Virus genome (UHGV): UHGV-0068637
Reading direction: 5' to 3' (one strand)
Length of the DNA: 18,257 nt
Source: a virus
The position numbers and the translations under genes are program-made. Shown one piece after another: positions 38 to 12,631 of the stretch. The notes under the pieces were generated by a model. The model saw only the letters and a program-made list of their open reading frames with translations, had not been told where the DNA came from and searched no databases. Every line of letters starts with the position of its first letter. The stretch's first letter is position 1.

Positions 38-3000
38 TTATTCTTCGCTTCCGGTCAACTGACTGATAAGCGCTTCAAGTTTTGCTATCCGCTCATCCAT
101 TGCAGTAACGTCAGCTTTCAGGCTTGCGTTAACCTCATTCATTGCGGCAACGTTAGCTTTTAAGTTTGCGTTCTCCTCTTCCATTACAGCAACGCTGGCT
201 TTCAGGCTTGCGTTCTCCTCTTCCAGTTCGGTGACGCGATCATCCGTTTCGCGTGCCACCTGGACAAGTAAACCAGTAACCGCCGCATAGTCAACGCTGA
301 GGCACTTCATTTCCTCGCGTAAGATGTTGCCGTCAGTTGTTGGCCCTTGTAGCTCCTTGCCGTAAAGAGTGGTAAACGCTATCGCTTCAGGCAGCGCGTC
401 CATTACTTCCTGTGCAATAACACCAGCGTAAGGAAGGCCGTCATCTTTAAACGTGTAGGTATACCCGTTCATCTTACGGATGGATCCGGTGGCGTCACCT
501 ATGACCTTAATGTTGTCTTTAAGGCTCTGGTCAGAAGTTTGATACAGCGTCTTACATGTAAGATCGCCGTTAAAGTCAAATTTTCTGTTACCTGCTGCAT
601 CTTCCTGAGCATAGAACATGTATTGTTTGCTGTTACCAACCTCAAAAACGCTTTCCCTTCCGCTTTCACCCCATACCCTTACACTCCACGACTGCGCCGA
701 GGTGTCAGAGTTCCTTAAAAGAAGGCGCGGGCCGCTATCGCTGTTTTTAAGGATAACGTCGCCTTTTGCGGTTACGTCACTGACTGTGGTTAGCGTATTA
801 ACAGACACATCCTGATTTCTTCCTGAAACAACAATCTGACTCCATGCCGTCCAATTACCGTTCTCACAATAGCGAACGTATATTTGCTTCGTGTCTGTGC
901 CGACAAGTGTTTGTATGTTTGTGTAGTCTGTATCACTAATCTTGCGAATGGATTCTACACGCAACAAGAAGTTACCGCCTACACCGCTAGGCTTGTTGGC
1001 AATAGTGTTACCACCGCCTGCACTTGCGCATTGATAGTATTTAACAGAACCTTTATCAGATGCCTTAATAACAACGTTGTTAAGATCAATCTCCTGGTTT
1101 TCAATAGGTTGCGGATAGATAGGCCCGTACATACCTGCACTGAATGTGGCAAGGGCGGAAAACGTCGTTTGACCACCTACCGTCACACCGCTATCAAGCA
1201 CTGCTTGCGTGATAACTTTGCTGTTTGTTTTGTGATCGGGATTGTTACCAAAATACAGATCACCGCTGCCATCAATACCGAGGTATTTTTGAACAACGCT
1301 ATCAACCTTGAAGCCAATGGATAGGTTTTCAGAATACCCTGTACGCGTTAAAAGTAACGGTGTATGCTGTTTACCGCTGATTTTTAACGTGTTCTCCGTA
1401 GTTTCCGTGTTGTCGTTGGTGAACTCAGCTGTACGAGATGTTACTTTATATAGGATCTTTGCGCTGTTCGCCTGGATGCTTCCATCATGACGAACAACAA
1501 AATCACCTGTAGCCGTGCCGTTAGTGGTATTTGCCCGAATGCGGACTTCGCCACCCTCTTCGGAATTGGTAGGCGCCCAGATAACACCGCGTTCAGACTG
1601 GTCCTCATTCTGGAACCATAAATGGGCGGTTCCACTTTTTGAACGCAGATAGATCGACGGTGTTCCTTTAAGGATCGTCAGGTCGCCAGTCATGGTGTCA
1701 CCACCTTTTTTAACCTGAGCATCGTTGGTTACGTTGCCAAGTCCAACGTCAGCTTTAGACGGCTTGTATTTGGTTCCGTATAGAGTGTTGATCTGGAAAG
1801 TACCATCTTCAAGCGATCTGTCGTTACCAGAGAAAATCCTGACATTACCTGTGCCGTAGTCGATATTGATCGCAGACCACGTATCGCCGCACCGCGAGAA
1901 TACACCAGAACCGTGGCTGTGAAATGTGGCTGTGCTACCTTTTGGCTTACCGGATCTCCAGAAACACCCACCTTGCGCTTTCAGAGCTTTCAGTAAATCC
2001 TGATCGGTCATGTAACCCGTTGTGTCAGACCACGTTATCCCAGAACCACCAACACCGTAATTGCCTTTAAGCAGGGCATCTTGAAGGCCCAAATCTGCCT
2101 TAGTCGGCTTGTTTTCCTGGTCGTAAATCCTTATTGCAGGGCTTTCGATATATCCCTCTGGGGCGGTTTGTTGTTCGACATAGCCTTCTGGAATGTACAG
2201 TTCAGTCATGCCAGTCTGTGCCAGCACAGCAACCCTTGCGTCCTTAATGAATGCCCGCTGATAGCCCCAGACTTCAAAATATCCATCGCCCGGAACAATG
2301 CCGTAACGCATTTTGTTTTGTGCGTCCAGCCCTGCAGATCCGAGGCGGCGAACACCCAAAAACTTAGTTATGTTTGCACTGGTTATTCCGCCTGCAGTGG
2401 TGTAATTGCGAGCGGAGATCTCGATAAAGTCAATATTGCCGTAAGTCTTGCCGTAGTTACATGCGTTAGTAATCATTAGCGTCAGGTGGCAGTCACTAGC
2501 GCCCGGATCGGTCATTTTTGCGATCTTCACATAACGGGCATAATCAAAGGTATTGATAGGCCATTTACATTGAACCAATGCGTTGTTAGACCTTACTATC
2601 TGATTCAGATATTCTTGCGCCCTGTTCTCTGATGTTTTGGCTTTGGTTTCGCTTGTTTTTGCTGCCGTTTCGCTTGCCTTAGCGTTGGTTTCTGATGTTT
2701 TCGCGGCGGTGGCGGAGTTTGCTGCCGCTGTTTTTGATGCTGCTGCCGCGTTTTTGTCTGATTCTGTTTTTTGAGCGTTGGCAGTTGATTTCGCCGTTTC
2801 TGCGCGAATGTTGGTAAGAAGTTGTTCCATTTGACCATCACCGCCGAACTCATTCCACCACTCTACGGCGGAGGCGATTTCTGTTTCTTTGCTCTGGTAG
2901 TAACGCAGGGTTTCAGCTACGTCCTGAGCAAGCCCATCAACTGAGATCGAATCAGATAGCAGGATGCTAAATTTTGTCCCAGCAGGGATTGCGGGGTTAG

Positions 3001-3184
3001 CTGCTGGCGTCACTGACAGTTCAGTGCCGCTTTTAATTTCCGTGATGGTAAAGATCTGCACAGGATTGCCAACAGCAATGAGCGTGCAACCTACACGAAT
3101 AAGGGAAAGCGGCGCGGAGAAGTTTGTGCCCGTGCCTTTAACAGTGTTGCCATTGATGGCAATTGTTCCAGTTGTGTAAATCAT
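38..3184 (-). CDS. Side tail fibre protein with C-terminal intramolecular chaperone (peptidase S74-like) domain
   Basis: 1048-aa ORF, ATG at 3182-3184 with GGAG upstream. The Ala/Lys/Thr-rich 'AAKTSETNAKASETAAKTSETKAKTSE' region resembles lambda Stf / T4 fibre collar repeats. The C-terminal ~150 aa carries the 'TSDQSLKDNIKVI...GYTYTFKDD...GVIAQEV...LPEA...SVDY' signature typical of self-cleaving chaperone domains (endosialidase / T5 pb1 type), followed by a heptad coiled coil (ENASLKASVAVMEEENANLKANV). Confidence 0.8.
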   Translation of the reverse strand: MIYTTGTIAINGNTVKGTGTNFSAPLSLIRVGCTLIAVGNPVQIFTITEIKSGTELSVTPAANPAIPAGTKFSILLSDSISVDGLAQDVAETLRYYQSKETEIASAVEWWNEFGGDGQMEQLLTNIRAETAKSTANAQKTESDKNAAAASKTAAANSATAAKTSETNAKASETAAKTSETKAKTSENRAQEYLNQIVRSNNALVQCKWPINTFDYARYVKIAKMTDPGASDCHLTLMITNACNYGKTYGNIDFIEISARNYTTAGGITSANITKFLGVRRLGSAGLDAQNKMRYGIVPGDGYFEVWGYQRAFIKDARVAVLAQTGMTELYIPEGYVEQQTAPEGYIESPAIRIYDQENKPTKADLGLQDALLKGNYGVGGSGITWSDTTGYMTDQDLLKALKAQGGCFWRSGKPKGSTATFHSHGSGVFSRCGDTWSAINIDYGTGNVRIFSGNDRSLEDGTFQINTLYGTKYKPSKADVGLGNVTNDAQVKKGGDTMTGDLTILKGTPSIYLRSKSGTAHLWFQNEDQSERGVIWAPTNSEEGGEVRIRANTTNGTATGDFVVRHDGSIQANSAKILYKVTSRTAEFTNDNTETTENTLKISGKQHTPLLLTRTGYSENLSIGFKVDSVVQKYLGIDGSGDLYFGNNPDHKTNSKVITQAVLDSGVTVGGQTTFSALATFSAGMYGPIYPQPIENQEIDLNNVVIKASDKGSVKYYQCASAGGGNTIANKPSGVGGNFLLRVESIRKISDTDYTNIQTLVGTDTKQIYVRYCENGNWTAWSQIVVSGRNQDVSVNTLTTVSDVTAKGDVILKNSDSGPRLLLRNSDTSAQSWSVRVWGESGRESVFEVGNSKQYMFYAQEDAAGNRKFDFNGDLTCKTLYQTSDQSLKDNIKVIGDATGSIRKMNGYTYTFKDDGLPYAGVIAQEVMDALPEAIAFTTLYGKELQGPTTDGNILREEMKCLSVDYAAVTGLLVQVARETDDRVTELEEENASLKASVAVMEEENANLKANVAAMNEVNASLKADVTAMDERIAKLEALISQLTGSEE

Positions 3185-3361
3185 CGCAATGACTCCATTA
3201 TGTTAATTAACGGAATAATTCTACCATTTTGTGATCTGTGTTGCATTTTCTGCTTACACAAAATGTATTTGTTGATCTGTGTCAATATACGAAATGTGGT
3301 TTTGTCGGATATTTAAGCCACCGGGTGAACCGGATTAACCAACAAGAATGAGGGTTCAAAA
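3185..3361. promoter_or_regulatory. Divergent intergenic control region between tail fibre (-) and lipoprotein (+) genes
   Basis: 177-bp non-coding gap. Contains a 9-bp inverted repeat CATTTTGTG (3225-3233) / CACAAAATG (3257-3265), a 10-bp direct repeat TGATCTGTGT (3232-3241 and 3273-3282), and a GAGGG Shine-Dalgarno 7 nt before the ATG at 3362. No exact -35/-10 pair could be fixed by eye. Confidence 0.4.
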
Positions 3362-3610
3362 ATGAAAAACGTGTTCAAAGTGGTTTTGTTCGCCACGGCT
3401 GTTGCTCTTACTGGTTGCGCTGTTGACAAGGAGGCTGCATTGCATAACCTGCCGAATAGCGGAGTGATTCCACAAGATGTCGTCTATGATGGCAGCGGTC
3501 ATCTTGTCTATGACACTGAAAAACTGCCGTATACTGGTCAATGGTGTCATGAACTTGATCACAATATGCGCCGCATCGGTAGCCCTTCTAACTGTGTAGC
3601 TAACTACTAA
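3362..3610 (+). CDS. Small secreted lipoprotein, Cor-like superinfection-exclusion candidate
   Basis: 82-aa ORF with a signal peptide and lipobox (MKNVFKVVLFATAVALTG|C), a good RBS, and an intrinsic terminator immediately downstream. It is opposite-strand to, and sandwiched between, the J-like gene and the tail fibre, the position where cor-type lipoprotein morons sit in phi80/N15/T1-like phages. The function is inferred from context only. Confidence 0.65.
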   Translation: MKNVFKVVLFATAVALTGCAVDKEAALHNLPNSGVIPQDVVYDGSGHLVYDTEKLPYTGQWCHELDHNMRRIGSPSNCVANY

Positions 3611-3613
3611 AAG

Positions 3614-3644
3614 AAAACCCCGCGCGAAGCGGGGTTGTTTTTTA
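3614..3644. terminator. Bidirectional rho-independent terminator (lipoprotein gene / J gene convergent)
   Basis: Hairpin CCCCGC-GCGAA-GCGGGG followed by TTGTTTTTT on the plus strand, with an A-run on the other side giving a T-tract on the minus strand. Lies between the convergent stops at 3610 (+) and 3642 (-). Confidence 0.75.
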
Positions 3645-6600
3645 TATCCATGTTCCTGAACTTCTTGTTATAAGTATTAAACCTGGTTTTCTTATTGCTG
3701 CATTAGATGTATTGGTAAAGTTTTCCGTCACCTCTACTGTAATTGTTGGGTATGTGAGGCCAGATACACAGTGCACCGCGACAGTTGACATTGCTGGGGT
3801 TGATGCTGGCCTTTCTATATTAATTGTTTTTTGGTGTCCGCTTATATTTATAGTTACATTGATGCGAGAAGATTCACTATATGTATAGTATGACAAATCA
3901 TACGGAATCATAACGTAAACTGTTTTTGATAAACTTGATGAACTTGAATCAAGATAAGTTTTCGAAACGCGCCTGCTGCCATTTCCCCTCATTGACGGAA
4001 ATACATCCTCGTTTATCACTGACATACTTGCTACGTCACCAACAAAACTTGTAGCTTCAACTGCTCCAGTAAATTTACCGCCAGTTGCGTAAACAGTACC
4101 GTTAAACACACCAGCATAAGCGTATACCGTACCCCTTACGGTTACCTGGTTAAATACTGCGTCACCGGCTTTATCTATCGCCCATCCTGTACCGTTTTCC
4201 CAGCTGTAATTAACTGACTGTATTCGATCAGCTATTTTGGCGGAGTTGATAGTTCCGTCCTTAATAAACGCTTCTCTTACATACATTGCGCCATTGGTGA
4301 CATAGAAAGGCGTTATATATGTGCCGTTTGCTTCCGTCATCAACACGAAGCGGTCAACAAGGAAGATACACTGCGACTGGAAGTTAGTACCATCACCAGT
4401 GAGGCCAAGCGACATACCTGTCGCGTACGTCTTGCCGTAGTTGTCGGTTGCCAGCTTGATAGAGTACGACGCATCAACATTGCCTTTGAAGTCGGTCAAT
4501 GCTTTGGATGTCGTTTCTATTGCCGTTTTATTCCCGTTAACGGTCACTGTTAGCTGATCGATTTTCGTTGATAACGCCTCGTCAGCCGTAGCCATCGCCT
4601 GCGACCATTCAGTGATACTTGCGTCTACCAGTTCGAAGGACGCTGAGATCTGGCTGAATTTTTCAGCGTTTGATTCCTCATGCGTAGCTAGTGCCGTTGA
4701 TACCTCAGATACTTTCGAGTTGATTTCACCGGTAAGCGATGCGCTAAGGCCGCTTATTGCGTCTGCGCGTGCTTTTGTTTCGTCGGCGATAGCCTTGTCC
4801 ATCCTGGTAATGTTGCTCGTTACCTTGCTGTCAAGCGTTGAGATTGATGCATTCACACCGCTGATTGCTTCGCCGCGTGCACTGGTTTCGTCCGCAATGG
4901 CTTTATCGAGGCGGTTAATGCTTGCTTCCGTTTTCTTATCAAGATCTGTGATAGATGCGTTCACACCACTAATGGCTTCCGCTGTTGCCTTTTTCTCTTC
5001 CGCCATAACCTTGTCAATGCGGTCGATTTTCGCATTGGCTTCCCTGATCCCTTTCTTGTATTTGGCTGAAAGGGCAACATGCGTGTTGGTCTGAGCGATT
5101 GAGTTATTGATAAGTGCAATCGAGGTATTCTGCATACTTGCTTTGGTCTGGTTGATTTCATCGCTGTTTTTCTCAACGTTGTTTTCAACCGCACCAAGTT
5201 CGGCGCTGATACCGGATATTGCCTGCGCACGGGCGCTTGACTCGTCGGCAATGGCCTGATCCAGGCGCTTGACGCTGGCGTTTGTGTTGTTCTCAAGCGT
5301 TGTTAAGTCTGCTTTGACCTCTGTTATTGCGTCACTTCTTGCCTTCGTTTCGTCTGATATTGCTTTATCAAGGCGGGAAACGCTGGCGTCTGTTTTCTTG
5401 TCAAGGGTGTCGATCGATGCCTTCACGCCACTGATGGCCTGTGCGCGTGCGCTGGCCTCGTCAGCGATTGCCTGGTCGAGTCTGTTCACCTCTGATTCAG
5501 TGTTGCCTTCAAGCGTGCTGATGCTTGCATTAACGCTGCTGATAGCGTCAGTGCGTGCCTTCGTTTCGTCTGCAATCGCTTTATCAAGGCGATTAACGTT
5601 ACTTGTTACCTTGCCGTCAAGTGTGGAGATTGATGCCTTCACACCATTGATGGCTTCGGTTCTCGCGCTCGTTTCGTCGGCAATAGCCTTATCAAGGCGG
5701 CTTATGCTTGAATCGGTTTTCTTATCAAGTGCTGATACTGAGGCGTTCACCCCATTGATAGCTTCTGAGCGTGCGCTTGTTTCGTCTGCAATAGCTTGAT
5801 CCAGACGTTTAACGCTGGCGTCTGTTTTCTTGTCAAGTGCTGAAATGCTTGCGTTAACGTCGCTGACAGCCTGGGTTCGTGCGCTCGATTCATCGGCGAT
5901 TGCCTGGTCCAGACGTTTAACGCTGGCGTCAGTTTTCTTGTCAAGATTGTCTATTGAGGCGTTCACACCGTTAATAGCTTCGGCGCGTGCGCTGGCCTCG
6001 TCAGCCACTGCACGTTCCACGCTAGAAATCTGACCTTTAAGGTTGGAATCCATCGTGTTCATTTCTGCCGTGATGGTTTCCAGTGATTCCGCTGTCGCTT
6101 TTTTCTCTTCAGCGATAACGTTGTCAATACGGTCAATTTCCGCTTTCGTTTCCGTCCTGCCTTTCTTATACTGGGCGGTAAGGGTTACGCGCGTGTTTGT
6201 CTGTGCAAGCGAGTTGTTGATAAGCGCCAATGAAGCGTTTTGCAGGCTTGCTTTTGCCTGTGCCAGTTCGCTGTCAACTTTTTCGCTTGACACTTCTAAT
6301 AAGTCGATTCTGGACTCATGCTGACCAATATCATCGGCGTTCTCTTTAACTTTTTTGTAGAGATCTTCCGTTTCTTTTTTAAGCGTATCGGTGTCAGCTT
6401 TTATTGTTCCTGTTTCCGTGATCAGATTGTCAGTGTCAGTCCTTAAATCTTCAGTTATGTTGTTCAGGTTGTCGGTTTCGGTCCTTAAATCTTCAGTTAC
6501 GCTGGTAAGGTTGTCAGTTGTAGTTTTGAGGCTGTCAGTAGCAGTTTTCAGTTCTTCCGTGACACCATCAATGACATCGGCGCGGTCGCCAAGATCTTTG

Positions 6601-9083
6601 ATGTCACTAATCATATCTTTGAACTGCTCAGACTCCATGACGTCCTTCATCACGTAGTCGCTGATTTCGTCGAAGTTTTCAGTCGGTTTACCTGATGCCT
6701 CAACGAAGTCTGACACACCAAAGGCATTGCGCGTGCGCACATAGACGTAATAGGTGCGGCCCGTGTTCATGCCGCCAAACGTCCACTGATAACCACGTCC
6801 GGTGTATTGTGCCTTAGTGGTCACTGATGCCGGATCTGTGATTTGATTTTCACCAGCGAAATAGAACTCATAACTAGTGTCAGTGGTGAGCGTTGTTCTG
6901 CTAATCGGGTAAACTGTGGCCTGAAATACACCAGGAACCCAGTTGACACCTATCGGGGCCGCTGGCGCACCAATAACCAGGTCCACAATGCTTTCCGCAC
7001 CCTTCATGCCCGTGTCGTTTCTGCCACGGATGCCTAACGAATAGGTTCCCGCATCAATGCCATAAAAATCATGGCTGTAATTAGTGGTTTCGTAGTATTT
7101 AACCACCGCTCCCGCTGTATTGTATACGCGGATCTCAAAGGTAAGACGATGAGTTGTTGTCATCGTTTCCCATGTTGCGCGACATTGAACCGTTTCGGAT
7201 CCAACGTTCATCACTTTCAGGTTTTCAATGTTAGGCACGCGGAAGTGATTGAGCGTGTCGTTGTTGACTTCAAAGACTGCACCTTCATCAACTACAGCCT
7301 GTTTGTGAGGATCGTGCTGTGCCGCCTCTATGGTGTACACGCTGTTGTTTTCAGTTTCCGCAACGCTGACGATTCGACATAACACGGGTTTAGCTGCGTC
7401 TGTTGACACGGCGAACACAGTACCGTTACGAATCCATGCAGGGGCGGATGCAAGGGTAATTTGGTTCACGTTAACACCAGTGATCTGATGTTTTTTAAAC
7501 TTGCCATCACTGTCAAGCAGGCTGATGGTATCACCAGGGGCGATATATTCAGAGTCAACATTATCTACAGTGATAACCCTGCCACTGTTTGCCACGATGC
7601 GACCGCCCAAACGAGCGCCTGCGCGGTTATTGTCGAGTATCTCGATAATATCACCAGGGGTGAAGTGAATCGCGTCACGGGCCATTTTAAACGTGAATTT
7701 TGAGGGTTCGCGTTTTGCTGTTTCTATCAGCCATTTGCCAGCGCGGTAAGCCTGCCCGCGTGACGTGCAACCAAAAGCCTCCAACGTGGTTTCGTTGTAA
7801 CCATCGCGGGCGATCAGTTCATCATCTGCTACGTATTCTTTTGATTGTTCCCAACCGTTTTCCGGGTCAGTCCATGACACAATCACAGCGTTGTAAGATT
7901 CCGCGCGGGCGATACTTGAACGAGTAAATGCGCCATCAACGACGTTTGCATTCGTGATGGTGGCAATTGGATCTTGCGGTGCATCAATCATCACCGTAAG
8001 GCGCTGCCCGTCCCATAACGCGATACCACGGAACATGCCTGCAATGTTGTCCAGCAAGTCGCGGGCGCTCATTTGCTCAGTGATGTAAGCGTTAAGCGTC
8101 ATGCGTGGTTCAAGGCCGCCGTAACCGTCGTTTACCAACTGGTCGCAGTATTGAGAAAGCACATATAATGCGCCATCATCAACGTCAATGTAACCGGCGT
8201 GGCGGGTAAGCCCGAAGCGTTCATTTTTCACCAGATACCGGAAAAGCCATGCAGGGTTGTTGGTGTATGCCTTTTTGAAGCCACCAAGCCATAAACCTGA
8301 GTATGTGCGTGTTTCCGGGTCGTAGTTATCAGGCACGTCAACAATCAGGCCGCGCATGTGATAGGTGCGTGTCGGCGTGTCGGTATACTGATCGTGGTCA
8401 ATTACCGCGCCTGCTACAGCGGTGTGAGGATAAGACAAGTTATCGTCTATTATCTCGCTGTAACTGCTCCACCTGGTGTCATTGCGAAGTAGATCGCTTT
8501 TACTGTCTGGCGTTACGCGACGAACGCGAATATCAAACGGTTTTTCATCCGGCGCTTGGATGATGTGCGCTTCCATATACTCGCCGCTTTGTTTACCAGG
8601 GCCAATGGTAATATCTTTGACTAGTGACCACGTTGTTGACGATGATGGCTTAACATCAACCATCAACACAACAGATGTATTGTATTGATTGCCCTTGTCA
8701 TCTGACTGAACCAGAGAATCAACGCCAAGATTCAGCCTTACGCGGTTAACGTTTGGATCTGAAACGGTCCTGATTATTGGCGTATCGTGAGTCACTTTTG
8801 CGTTAACAATAACGGTTGATTCAATGGCGTTGAAGCCGTTGATTGGTGACTGGTCAGCCGTACCATTACGCCACGCCACGCTAACGCCAGGGACCGATGT
8901 GCCGCCGTTGGCGTCAGTGATTGGGCTGTCATTAAGCATTACGCTGTTTAATGGCGCTTTCTGGTTTACAGGGCCGTAGATTGGGCCTTCGCTGAGAATG
9001 TCCAAAACACGATAAAACTGTTTATGAAACAGGTTATCGTTTAATAATGTTGGTGTTTTGGCTTTGCCGCCGCCGCTACTCAT
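3642..9083 (-). CDS. J: Host specificity / central tail fibre protein (lambda J family) with large coiled-coil repeat insertion
   Basis: 1813-aa ORF with AGGAGA RBS. The N-terminal ~800 aa is collinear with lambda J ('ILSEGPIYGPV', 'NPAWLFRYLV...RFGL', 'LSQYCDQLV.DG.GG.EPRMT.NAY', 'EAFGCTSRGQAYRAGKWLI'), followed by FN3-like segments. The C-terminal ~300 aa is a J-like receptor-binding region. About 650 aa of repeat-rich alpha-helical sequence sits in between. Confidence 0.9.
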   Translation of the reverse strand: MSSGGGKAKTPTLLNDNLFHKQFYRVLDILSEGPIYGPVNQKAPLNSVMLNDSPITDANGGTSVPGVSVAWRNGTADQSPINGFNAIESTVIVNAKVTHDTPIIRTVSDPNVNRVRLNLGVDSLVQSDDKGNQYNTSVVLMVDVKPSSSTTWSLVKDITIGPGKQSGEYMEAHIIQAPDEKPFDIRVRRVTPDSKSDLLRNDTRWSSYSEIIDDNLSYPHTAVAGAVIDHDQYTDTPTRTYHMRGLIVDVPDNYDPETRTYSGLWLGGFKKAYTNNPAWLFRYLVKNERFGLTRHAGYIDVDDGALYVLSQYCDQLVNDGYGGLEPRMTLNAYITEQMSARDLLDNIAGMFRGIALWDGQRLTVMIDAPQDPIATITNANVVDGAFTRSSIARAESYNAVIVSWTDPENGWEQSKEYVADDELIARDGYNETTLEAFGCTSRGQAYRAGKWLIETAKREPSKFTFKMARDAIHFTPGDIIEILDNNRAGARLGGRIVANSGRVITVDNVDSEYIAPGDTISLLDSDGKFKKHQITGVNVNQITLASAPAWIRNGTVFAVSTDAAKPVLCRIVSVAETENNSVYTIEAAQHDPHKQAVVDEGAVFEVNNDTLNHFRVPNIENLKVMNVGSETVQCRATWETMTTTHRLTFEIRVYNTAGAVVKYYETTNYSHDFYGIDAGTYSLGIRGRNDTGMKGAESIVDLVIGAPAAPIGVNWVPGVFQATVYPISRTTLTTDTSYEFYFAGENQITDPASVTTKAQYTGRGYQWTFGGMNTGRTYYVYVRTRNAFGVSDFVEASGKPTENFDEISDYVMKDVMESEQFKDMISDIKDLGDRADVIDGVTEELKTATDSLKTTTDNLTSVTEDLRTETDNLNNITEDLRTDTDNLITETGTIKADTDTLKKETEDLYKKVKENADDIGQHESRIDLLEVSSEKVDSELAQAKASLQNASLALINNSLAQTNTRVTLTAQYKKGRTETKAEIDRIDNVIAEEKKATAESLETITAEMNTMDSNLKGQISSVERAVADEASARAEAINGVNASIDNLDKKTDASVKRLDQAIADESSARTQAVSDVNASISALDKKTDASVKRLDQAIADETSARSEAINGVNASVSALDKKTDSSISRLDKAIADETSARTEAINGVKASISTLDGKVTSNVNRLDKAIADETKARTDAISSVNASISTLEGNTESEVNRLDQAIADEASARAQAISGVKASIDTLDKKTDASVSRLDKAISDETKARSDAITEVKADLTTLENNTNASVKRLDQAIADESSARAQAISGISAELGAVENNVEKNSDEINQTKASMQNTSIALINNSIAQTNTHVALSAKYKKGIREANAKIDRIDKVMAEEKKATAEAISGVNASITDLDKKTEASINRLDKAIADETSARGEAISGVNASISTLDSKVTSNITRMDKAIADETKARADAISGLSASLTGEINSKVSEVSTALATHEESNAEKFSQISASFELVDASITEWSQAMATADEALSTKIDQLTVTVNGNKTAIETTSKALTDFKGNVDASYSIKLATDNYGKTYATGMSLGLTGDGTNFQSQCIFLVDRFVLMTEANGTYITPFYVTNGAMYVREAFIKDGTINSAKIADRIQSVNYSWENGTGWAIDKAGDAVFNQVTVRGTVYAYAGVFNGTVYATGGKFTGAVEATSFVGDVASMSVINEDVFPSMRGNGSRRVSKTYLDSSSSSLSKTVYVMIPYDLSYYTYSESSRINVTINISGHQKTINIERPASTPAMSTVAVHCVSGLTYPTITVEVTENFTNTSNAAIRKPGLILITRSSGTWI
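4730..6040 (-). repeat. In-frame 108-bp tandem repeat array (about 10 copies, 36-aa unit) inside the J-like gene
   Basis: The motif 'tcaag...gcgcgtgcgctggcctcgtcagc' recurs with exact 540-bp (5 x 108) spacing, e.g. 5401 vs 5941 and 5451 vs 5991. The protein unit is 'DKKTDASVKRLDQAIADESSARTQAVSDVNASISAL' and variants. The array is split into two blocks (about 2.5 and about 7.5 copies) by a duplicated ~250-bp spacer segment. Confidence 0.85.
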
Positions 9084-11292: not shown

Positions 11293-11307
11293 GGGTTATA
11301 ACAAAAA

Positions 11308-11661
11308 ATGGAAAAATACAGATTAGACGTGTGGACTGATAAATACGAATGGGAACGCATGGGGCTATTTGATACATATGAATCAGCGTGTGATGAAGGT
11401 AGTGAATTACTGCGCTGTTGGTCTAATGCTCGTTATTATTATGTTGTTCCAGTACAAGTACCGGATAAGGTGGAAGAGATGAACCCGAAAGATATTAACT
11501 TTAACGTCAATGTTGAATTTGCAGACTCTATGGATCAGGCTTGCCCTGGTGAAATACACGCAAAAGGTTTTCCGGCTGACGATCCAGAAGCAAAACGAGA
11601 ATACGAAAAAGCGGCAAAAGACTTCTGCATAGATAACCTGGGCTGTTTTAATGGCAAATAA
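11308..11661 (+). CDS. Hypothetical acidic Cys-containing protein (cassette A, ORF2)
   Basis: 117-aa ORF with protein-like composition, whereas the antisense frames are Phe/Cys/Ile-rich junk. Lies in an AT-rich region. RBS is weak. Confidence 0.55.
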   Translation: MEKYRLDVWTDKYEWERMGLFDTYESACDEGSELLRCWSNARYYYVVPVQVPDKVEEMNPKDINFNVNVEFADSMDQACPGEIHAKGFPADDPEAKREYEKAAKDFCIDNLGCFNGK

Positions 11662-11676
11662 ATAGTAGGCCAATAT

Positions 11677-11916
11677 ATGAAAATGATTGGTATTATAAAA
11701 CTCGTTGTTACATCTAACAAAAGGGAGGATTTTAATATAAAAGATAGATACCCATTATTCAAAACATCTTCTGGCAATTATTTTACTGTTGACAACTGTT
11801 TAAACTTTGTTCCGCTGACTGTGCTTGATATTTCTGGAGCAAGGGTGAAAGGGTACGGAACTGCTTGCGGTGATGATTTTGTGCCTGATATGCTATTTTT
11901 TGAAACGTGGGAATAA
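11677..11916 (+). CDS. Hypothetical protein (cassette A, ORF3)
   Basis: 79-aa ORF, weak RBS, start could be 11677 or 11683. No recognisable family. Confidence 0.45.
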   Translation: MKMIGIIKLVVTSNKREDFNIKDRYPLFKTSSGNYFTVDNCLNFVPLTVLDISGARVKGYGTACGDDFVPDMLFFETWE

Positions 11917-11921
11917 AAATC

Positions 11922-12188
11922 ATGGGGCGGCGCAATCACGGTGATTATGTGTACACGTTGAAACAGGCCGCCCGCCTCATCGGTTATCATGAGCACGAAT
12001 TTATTAATTTGCTGATTGAGCGCGGGATACTTTACCAGGTCTGTTTAACGCTGTACCCGAAAGCTAAATACCTACAGGAAAAGTTATTCATCATCATGAC
12101 GGATGAAAACCAGGTCAATCACTCATTCGTCACTGATAAAGGTGTCAACTATCTGCGCGATAACTTACAGGGCGGCAATTATGGATAA
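11922..12188 (+). CDS. Putative small helix-turn-helix DNA-binding protein (cassette A, ORF4)
   Basis: About 89 aa from the ATG at 11922 (the ORF track uses GTG at 11907). The N-terminal 'YTLKQAARLIGYHEHEFINLLIERGIL' has the pattern of an HTH recognition unit (excisionase / AlpA / MerR-like). Confidence 0.5.
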   Translation: MGRRNHGDYVYTLKQAARLIGYHEHEFINLLIERGILYQVCLTLYPKAKYLQEKLFIIMTDENQVNHSFVTDKGVNYLRDNLQGGNYG

Positions 12189-12252
12189 GGTTATCGAAAA
12201 TGTTTTGGTAGTGGCTGGCGCAATTGCCATCGTTTATGCCTTTATGAACTAA
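12181..12252 (+). CDS. Possible 23-aa hydrophobic peptide (cassette A, ORF5)
   Basis: MDKVIENVLVVAGAIAIVYAFMN. Overlaps the stop of ORF4. Very short and hand-called, so it may not be translated. Confidence 0.3.
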   Translation: MDKVIENVLVVAGAIAIVYAFMN

Positions 12253-12263
12253 TGGGGTGAATC

Positions 12264-12401
12264 ATGAAAATCGAAGTTTTAGCACTGATTGTAATGGGCT
12301 TGATTGTCTTCGGTGTTCACGCTGCTGGTTGGGACTGGGCGGCAATAGCAAACAACATGGCGCACGCTCACCCAATGAGTTTGCTGTATATTCACTACTA
12401 A
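12264..12401 (+). CDS. Small single-pass membrane peptide (cassette A, ORF6)
   Basis: 45-aa ORF, GGGGTGA RBS 4 nt upstream. The N-terminus 'IEVLALIVMGLIVFGV' is hydrophobic. A terminator follows directly. Confidence 0.45.
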   Translation: MKIEVLALIVMGLIVFGVHAAGWDWAAIANNMAHAHPMSLLYIHY

Positions 12402-12403
12402 CA

Positions 12404-12440
12404 AGAAAAACCCCGCGCGAAGCGGGGTTGTTATTATACG
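12404..12440. terminator. Bidirectional rho-independent terminator (near-identical copy of the 3614-3644 hairpin)
   Basis: CCCCGCGCGAAGCGGGGTTGTT is identical to 3618-3639. There are A/T runs on both sides, between the convergent stops at 12401 (+) and 12434 (-). Confidence 0.7.
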
Positions 12441-12631
12441 CCATCAACCAAAAATAAAACCTCCTTGCCTTCCCTGGATCTGCATCCCACATACCCGTCA
12501 CCAACATCATGAAGATACCAGGTATCGCCATTGTCAGCCTTTACAGTAAGGTCGTTGATCTCATAGTCGTCAAACAATGTAAAAGCGTCAGTTTTGTCAA
12601 CTACACAAGTCCCGTACATAACAACCTCCAT
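12434..12631 (-). CDS. Hypothetical 65-aa protein translationally coupled to M
   Basis: Its ATG (12629-12631) overlaps the TAA of the M-like gene (TAATG arrangement). Same strand as the tail genes, followed by a terminator. No recognisable family. Confidence 0.45.
   Translation of the reverse strand: MEVVMYGTCVVDKTDAFTLFDDYEINDLTVKADNGDTWYLHDVGDGYVGCRSREGKEVLFLVDGV

Follow-up and report, generated by a model that had tools for sequence, protein, structure and literature searches.

A probable LamB-associated superinfection-exclusion lipoprotein encoded between the tail fibre and J genes of virus genome UHGV-0068637

Introduction

The lipoprotein Llp of phage T5, a small protein made as a 77-residue precursor from a gene that adjoins and is divergent from the receptor-binding gene oad, renders the outer-membrane receptor of its own phage unusable and carries an intramolecular disulphide (PMC9586334). 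In the crystal structure of Llp bound to its target FhuA, a TonB-dependent transporter, the plug of the transporter is jammed and the loops EL7 and EL8 are folded inward (van den Berg et al., PNAS 2022; PMC9586334). The Cor proteins of phages phi80, N15, T1 and HK022 are outer-membrane lipoproteins of approximately 75 residues encoded downstream of J, and they exclude phages with which they share a receptor, namely the FhuA-dependent phages. In T1 the cor gene lies on the opposite strand, downstream of a J-like locus.

A further set of lipoproteins has been described in the mEpimmI phages. Negrete-Mendez et al. (Front Microbiol 2025; PMC11893012) assigned gp116 of phage mEp010, here Lpp010, as a type-C lipoprotein and cloned it under Ptac. 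Plasmid-expressed Lpp010 excludes mEp010, mEp044, mEp554 and lambda, whilst mEp013 escapes, and all five fail on a lamB knockout (PMC11893012). The sister phage mEp021 has in the same slot, between fibre and J, a different lipoprotein of type A (gp81, Lpp021). It is unrelated to type C, is also carried by mEp515, and excludes both phages, which need OmpA (PMC11893012). The published phenotypes of Lpp010 concern LamB-dependent phages. Van den Berg et al. expected proteins of this kind downstream of gpJ in phages that target LamB, Bas23 amongst them, which 'likely do have SE lipoproteins', and asked how such lipoproteins work given that LamB has no known allostery (PMC9586334).

Here we analyse a lipoprotein gene in a stretch of viral DNA 18,257 nucleotides in length from UHGV virus genome UHGV-0068637, referred to in full as the window. 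The gene had been picked out in a preliminary description made from the sequence without database searches, and we now compare its product, its neighbours and its distribution with the systems outlined above.

The lipoprotein gene and its surroundings

The open reading frame at 3362..3610 on the plus strand starts with ATG, ends with TAA and consists of 82 codons and the stop. Its translation is MKNVFKVVLFATAVALTGCAVDKEAALHNLPNSGVIPQDVVYDGSGHLVYDTEKLPYTGQWCHELDHNMRRIGSPSNCVANY (beginning MKNVFKVVLFATAVALTGCAVDK). Residues 1-18 (3362..3415, plus strand) form a signal peptide with a basic n-region (MKNVFK), a hydrophobic core (VVLFATAVA) and a lipobox, L16-T17-G18-C19, encoded at nt 3407-3418 and matching the pattern [LVI][ASTVI][GAS]C. 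The mature lipoprotein, C19 to Y82 (64 residues; 3416..3607, plus strand), opens with a variable linker that leads into a conserved core containing PNSGV-P and DTEKLP-TGQW. A conserved pair of cysteines is present, C62 (3545-3547) and C78 (3593-3595), the latter invariant and the former found in 22 of 23 homologues. In the alignment of these 23 homologues the lipobox cysteine and 20 further positions are invariant. The residue at position +2 after the lipobox cysteine is alanine; in the homologues read it is Ala, Gly, Ser or Thr and in none of them Asp.

Against the mEp010 homologue there are 14 synonymous differences and a single non-synonymous one, giving a dN/dS of 0.02, and in five other pairs of homologues the value is 0.04-0.10. 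This low dN/dS, together with the invariant lipobox cysteine and 20 other invariant positions, leads us to regard 3362..3610, on comparative sequence grounds, as a real gene under strong purifying selection and not a chance ORF. Given that evidence the minus-strand ORF at 3356..3562, which overlaps the lipoprotein gene, is probably spurious.

The gene sits between two genes of the opposite orientation. Upstream and divergent from it is a side tail fibre gene (38..3184, minus strand; 1048 residues) with a Peptidase_S74 intramolecular chaperone domain. Downstream and convergent is a J-like gene for the tail-tip or host-specificity protein (3642..9083, minus strand; 1813 residues), with Pfam matches to FNIII-A_GpJ, Phage-tail_3, Ig_J and Phage_Tail_Tip. 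The preliminary description of an 82-residue lipoprotein with a canonical lipobox (LTG then C at residues 16-19), encoded between the J homologue and the fibre on the strand opposite to both, is thus confirmed. A Shine-Dalgarno-like GAGGG (3350-3354, plus strand), read directly from the sequence, lies 7 nt 5' of the ATG. An intrinsic terminator hairpin occupies 3616..3636, with an 8 bp stem that includes six GC pairs. T-runs flank it on either side, one for each strand, so that the hairpin can act bidirectionally, ending the lipoprotein gene on one strand and J, which converges on it, on the other.

The divergent intergenic region, 3185..3361, presumably holds the promoters of the lipoprotein and fibre genes. 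A scan of the window gave no sigma-70-like promoter at the scan threshold; when the scan was relaxed the sole candidate was weak and distant, ATGACT-19-AATAAT at 3189-3219. The same description had called the gene a moron. The terminator is in keeping with that label, whilst no sigma-70-like promoter was found at threshold, so the term fits in part. The intergenic region also contains a 16-nt direct repeat, at 3226-3241 (ATTTTGTGATCTGTGT) and 3267-3282 (ATTTGTTGATCTGTGT), 41 bp apart, and a 9-nt inverted repeat at 3225-3233 and 3257-3265. These repeats, spanning 3225-3282, may represent a regulator site for the divergent promoters.

Elsewhere in the window, at approximately 11300-12460, a group of small plus-strand ORFs of 117, 79, 93 and 66 residues lies inside the minus-strand tail operon. 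They correspond to the hypothetical proteins gp107-111 of mEp010, and this island may be a second accessory or moron cassette. The window as a whole matches part of a 28-kb contig from an ENA metagenome assembly exactly.

Family membership and distribution

The lipoprotein matches phrog_12984, annotated 'lipoprotein', with an E-value of 9e-27 over the whole profile, and this is the sole PHROG matched. Searches of other collections contributed little: there are no Pfam matches at E<=10, only sub-threshold, signal-peptide-like matches in NCBIfam, and no match in PADLOC. Nothing relevant was found in the PDB, where a sequence search gave one rhodanese at E = 1.3 and a profile search none.

Homologues were found with tblastn in 44 phage records. 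The closest, at 96-99% identity, are in mEp010, mEp013, mEp044 and mEp554, followed by MagusPhagus at 91%. Full-length matches at 47-59% identity occur in Seuratvirus (CAjan, Seurat, Bas21, Bas23 and Bas24), Nonagvirus 9g and Dhillonvirus (EP23, PNS1 and HH3), and also in Cronobacter phage CSP1, Salmonella phage STP-SP5 and Enterobacter phage AS5. In KurtStettler (Bas22) and the Maverick and CS16 phages the C-terminal half alone matches, at 68-73%. The family is small and isolated. It forms 25 clusters at 90% identity among 5.8 billion proteins, and when 1.84 billion representative proteins were searched with a mature-part profile, three genuine clusters at 50% identity were recovered; two additional weak profile matches, to very long repetitive proteins, are regarded as spurious. 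The lipoprotein locus is uncommon in E. coli, being present in 18 of 5,426 complete genomes, every time on the chromosome.

The relationship with the mEp phages extends beyond the lipoprotein. Between about 57 and 76% of the window aligns with the tail region of mEp554, mEp044, mEp010 and mEp013, at 88-90% nucleotide identity. As judged by these sequence comparisons the window gene is the type-C Lpp (phrog_12984) of the mEpimmI phages, which are temperate, non-lambdoid coliphages. The slot itself, convergent with J and divergent from the fibre, recurs beyond the window at eight loci drawn from five phage lineages. The same gene order is seen in the mEp phages, MagusPhagus, Seuratvirus, Dhillonvirus, an HK97-like E. 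coli prophage and metagenomic T1-like contigs.

Two members merit description. In E. coli O68:H12 strain 97.3 a prophage at dusA carries the lipoprotein gene next to an HK97-like J of 1296 residues. The lipoprotein gene (extracted locus 5607-6104) looks chimeric, its N-terminal two-thirds being Seuratvirus-like and its last ~140 nt 94% identical to the window. In RefSeq it is an over-long ORF of 165 residues that begins at a GTG further upstream. Where the start is expected, the methionine of MKRS... is replaced (..PIKRSIV..), so that initiation may occur elsewhere or the gene may be defective. The other is the lipoprotein of phage STP-SP5 (OR498732, 107-337), 58.5% identical to that of the window, which takes the family to Salmonella phages. 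The adjoining J is unannotated and the record ends inside it.

Comparison with Lpp010 and the BASEL phages

The window protein and Lpp010 (mEp010 gp116, WWQ70279.1) are identical at 81 of 82 positions (98.8%). The lone difference, Thr12 in the window and Ala12 in Lpp010, falls inside the signal peptide, and the mature sequences of 64 residues are consequently 100% identical. In this sense the lipoprotein is already known: the same mature sequence has been published and tested. The two loci also agree in gene position, orientation, terminator and phage backbone, with mEp010 aligning to 73% of the window at 89% nucleotide identity. They differ, apart from residue 12, in the adjoining J gene, where the C-terminal domain is of another variant.

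Homologues in phages Bas21-24 of the BASEL collection (Maffei et al. 2021; PMC8594841), whose terminal receptor is LamB, occupy the same locus and are true members of the family; those compared share 62-64% identity with the window protein over the mature sequence. They include Bas23 (WildeMaa), the phage singled out by van den Berg et al. In contrast to the window, the carriers are virulent, a Gly-rich linker replaces AVDKEAALHNL, and a strong sigma-70-like promoter is present, TTGACT-16-TATATT in Bas21 and Bas22.

The phage mEp013 is instructive. It carries an almost identical lipoprotein, yet is not excluded by Lpp010, and it needs LamB. The block cannot then be a simple removal of LamB, and exclusion would depend on how each J domain engages this porin. 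Self-exclusion of the phage from which the window derives is possible but not certain.

The C-terminal domain of J and the likely receptor

J ends in a stretch of 115-134 residues that comes after a conserved F[VI]GD[VI]A motif and exists in distinct variants. In the window this presumed receptor-binding domain comprises the C-terminal 134 residues, from the motif FVGDVA to the end (3645..4046, minus strand), and belongs to what we term variant 2. Variant 2 is also found in MagusPhagus, Bas21, Bas23, Bas24, CAjan, Seurat and the Dhillonvirus phages EP23 and PNS1. Variant 1 is carried by mEp010, mEp013, mEp044, mEp554, KurtStettler (Bas22), 9g, CSP1, HK97 and the HK97-like E. coli prophage; among these, LamB dependence is experimentally established for the four mEp phages and Bas22. 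A third, intermediate variant occurs in metagenomic T1-like contigs that keep this gene order, beside the most divergent member of the lipoprotein family (P0026). The J C-terminal domain of STP-SP5 (IEGDVCAIW...), truncated by the end of the record, is a further divergent form.

The window domain is 56% identical to that of MagusPhagus, 41-44% to those of the Seuratvirus phages Bas21, Bas23 and Bas24 and of EP23 (E about 1e-17), and 29% to the variant 1 domains of mEp010, KurtStettler and HK97. In the BASEL S5 table (PMC8594841) the terminal receptor entered for Bas21, Bas23 and Bas24 is LamB. The phage of the window may use LamB as well, although the nearest receptor-verified J domains are only 41-44% identical to its own.

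The lipoprotein is closely associated with these domains. The 44 records that carry it divide into 32 with variant 2 and 11 with variant 1, STP-SP5 being the 44th. Viewed from the side of J, all 32 records with variant 2 have the lipoprotein, as do 11 of the 15 with variant 1 or a distant relative, the exceptions being HK97 (two records), PD328 and GS166. The tail of HK97 J is variant 1 and 70% identical to that of mEp010. No lipoprotein gene and no recognisable remnant of one is present in the 207-bp gap between J and stf of HK97 (extracted locus 4033-4239), which indicates that the lipoprotein is dispensable for a variant 1 J and that the pairing is not obligatory.

Upstream of this domain, the central part of the window J (~4650-6250, residues ~950-1475) contains tandem coiled-coil-like repeats (...NASI.aLDKKTDASVKRLDQAIADE.SAR...), and such repeats account for J lengths of 1478-1828 residues among the lipoprotein-carrying relatives. 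Repeats of varying length in J are mentioned in the mEpimmI paper (PMC11893012).

A J domain exchanged beside a conserved lipoprotein

Comparison of the two genes across pairs of phages reveals that they have not travelled together. The window and mEp010 share a mature lipoprotein that is 100% identical and J C-terminal domains that are only 29% identical. KurtStettler and GottfriedDienst give a similar picture, with 97% and 31% respectively, whilst in mEp010 and KurtStettler the values are 64% for the mature lipoprotein and 68% for the J domain. By these identities the similarity of the lipoprotein tracks the phage lineage and not the J variant.

The nucleotide similarity of the window to mEp010, mEp013 and mEp044 ends at ~3645, at the J stop codon and the common terminator. 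The position of this break, a recombination junction, points to exchange of the J domain beside a lipoprotein gene that was kept. That the same mature lipoprotein is found with another J variant suggests that it acts on the receptor and not on a phage protein. Retention across the J swap, and the exclusion of lambda, which has a very different J tail, both favour action on a common receptor.

Alternative explanations

Could the protein belong with Cor and Llp and block FhuA, as the preliminary description proposed from its position? It resembles them in size, in its lipobox and in lying beside a tail-tip or receptor-binding gene, and the opposite-strand placement of T1 cor and the divergence of T5 llp from oad strengthen the analogy. 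We compared it with the sequences of phi80 Cor, T1 Cor and T5 Llp, extracted from the genome records. These three match phrog_1119 ('Cor superinfection exclusion protein') with E-values of 7e-37, 3e-30 and 1e-19, respectively, whereas the window protein has no match to that profile at E<=10. BLASTP at permissive settings aligned little past the signal peptide and lipobox (E 0.008-49), and hhalign of the mature-family profile gave probabilities of 0.06% against mature Cor and 0.16% against mature Llp. On these three lines the window protein is placed outside the Cor/Llp family and membership is rejected; what they share is functional and positional. The type-A lipoprotein was also considered and homology rejected. 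Gp81 of mEp021 matches PF24052 (5.6e-31) and phrog_4281, whereas the window protein has no Pfam match and the hhalign probability is 0.25%. The two further differ in the phages concerned, OmpA-dependent for type A, and in the J C-terminus alongside. Names are in any case a poor guide to kinship among small phage lipoproteins, and do not prove family: in RefSeq NC_005859 the T5 llp gene (extracted locus 20430-20663) is named 'lpp' with the product 'Cor superinfection exclusion protein', and PHROGs merges Cor and Llp. FhuA as the target is disfavoured by the phages that the identical mature protein excludes, all of which need LamB, by the occurrence of window-type J domains in the LamB phages Bas21, Bas23 and Bas24, and by a window J C-terminus unlike that of phi80. 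We therefore judge a Cor/Llp-family protein directed at FhuA to be very improbable. The other part of the earlier proposal, a Cor-like exclusion role deduced from position, draws support from the expression of Lpp010 (PMC11893012).

An exclusion role leaves room for a block that follows adsorption, for example at insertion of the tail tip or at passage of DNA through the periplasm or inner membrane. The escape of mEp013 despite its need for LamB would agree with such a block, as would the lack in LamB of both the plug and the allostery that Llp exploits. Lambda and the mEp phages are, however, unrelated except in their receptor and are both excluded, and the link with LamB-type J domains persists in four unrelated backbones that differ in tape-measure and ejection proteins; a lipoprotein of the outer membrane would, moreover, be poorly sited to act at the inner membrane. 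We consider a post-adsorption block unlikely. The product might instead be a generic lysogenic-conversion lipoprotein, affecting serum resistance or the envelope in the manner of lambda Bor, with its place next to J incidental. Such genes come to mind because in the temperate members the gene is not part of the late operon, faces the other way and has its own terminator. Yet it has no Pfam match to any family of that kind, it is carried with a strong sigma-70-like promoter by the strictly virulent Seuratvirus and Dhillonvirus, expression of Lpp010 produces exclusion, and the family shows tight linkage with a single class of J domain. Of the explanations considered this is the least credible, and we give it almost no weight.

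Proposed mode of action

We consider the product of the window gene, the type-C Lpp, likely to be an exclusion lipoprotein associated with LamB and a functional counterpart of Llp and Cor. In E. coli the sorting of lipoproteins follows the residue at position +2, with Asp as the determinant in the rule, and uses the Lol pathway. From its lipobox the precursor would be exported, acquire its lipid at Cys19 and be processed by signal peptidase II, and with Ala and not Asp at +2 the product is predicted to proceed by the Lol pathway to the outer membrane. In the oxidising periplasm a disulphide between C62 and C78, suggested by their conservation, probably stabilises the 64-residue domain. Such a bond would differ from that of Llp, where Cys11-Cys58 ties the termini together, in that both cysteines (mature residues 44 and 60) are in the C-terminal third.

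Cells that express the protein should then resist LamB-dependent phages, as the experiment with Lpp010 showed for mEp010, mEp044, mEp554 and lambda (PMC11893012). Most likely the lipoprotein acts on LamB and makes this terminal receptor unusable. Three observations point in that direction: the receptor common to the excluded phages, the near-exclusive linkage to LamB-type J domains, and the constancy of the lipoprotein across the J swap. In a lysogen the effect would be to block superinfection. For the virulent Seuratvirus and Dhillonvirus a second role seems likely, since these phages carry the gene and in Bas21 and Bas22 a strong promoter precedes it; by analogy with lytic conversion in T5, progeny may be spared from binding to LamB in cell debris.

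How might a porin without a plug be disabled? The jamming of the plug by Llp does not transfer, since LamB has neither a plug nor known allostery. Our tentative suggestion, which we hold at somewhat less than even weight, is that the lipoprotein disables plug-less LamB by a mechanism unlike the allostery of Llp and acts on the receptor and not on a phage protein. It could cap or enter the periplasmic mouth of the LamB trimer, or be exposed at the surface over the loops that bind J. Action directed at the receptor would explain how one mature lipoprotein comes to serve with two J domains of 29% identity, and also the escape of mEp013. AlphaFold2 models are too unreliable for a comparison of folds, both for the full precursor (23 sequences; mean pLDDT 60, pTM 0.32) and for the mature part (20 sequences; mean pLDDT 51, pTM 0.26).

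Implications

With respect to annotation, we recommend that the gene be named as a LamB-associated superinfection-exclusion lipoprotein, type-C Lpp, and not Cor, a label that has already been misapplied. The family would then be to LamB what Llp and Cor are to FhuA. Temperate gut coliphages share it with virulent Seuratvirus, Nonagvirus and Dhillonvirus, and on this basis lysogens that carry the gene should resist both lambda-like phages and those resembling Bas21-24. The virulent carriers in these three genera are candidates for phage therapy.

At only 64 residues, the mature lipoprotein offers a convenient subject with which to address the question, raised by van den Berg et al. (2022; PMC9586334), of how a porin that has no plug can be blocked. 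The window also provides a natural case in which a receptor-binding domain has been swapped whilst the exclusion gene beside it was kept, and so bears on the co-evolution of exclusion and host range.
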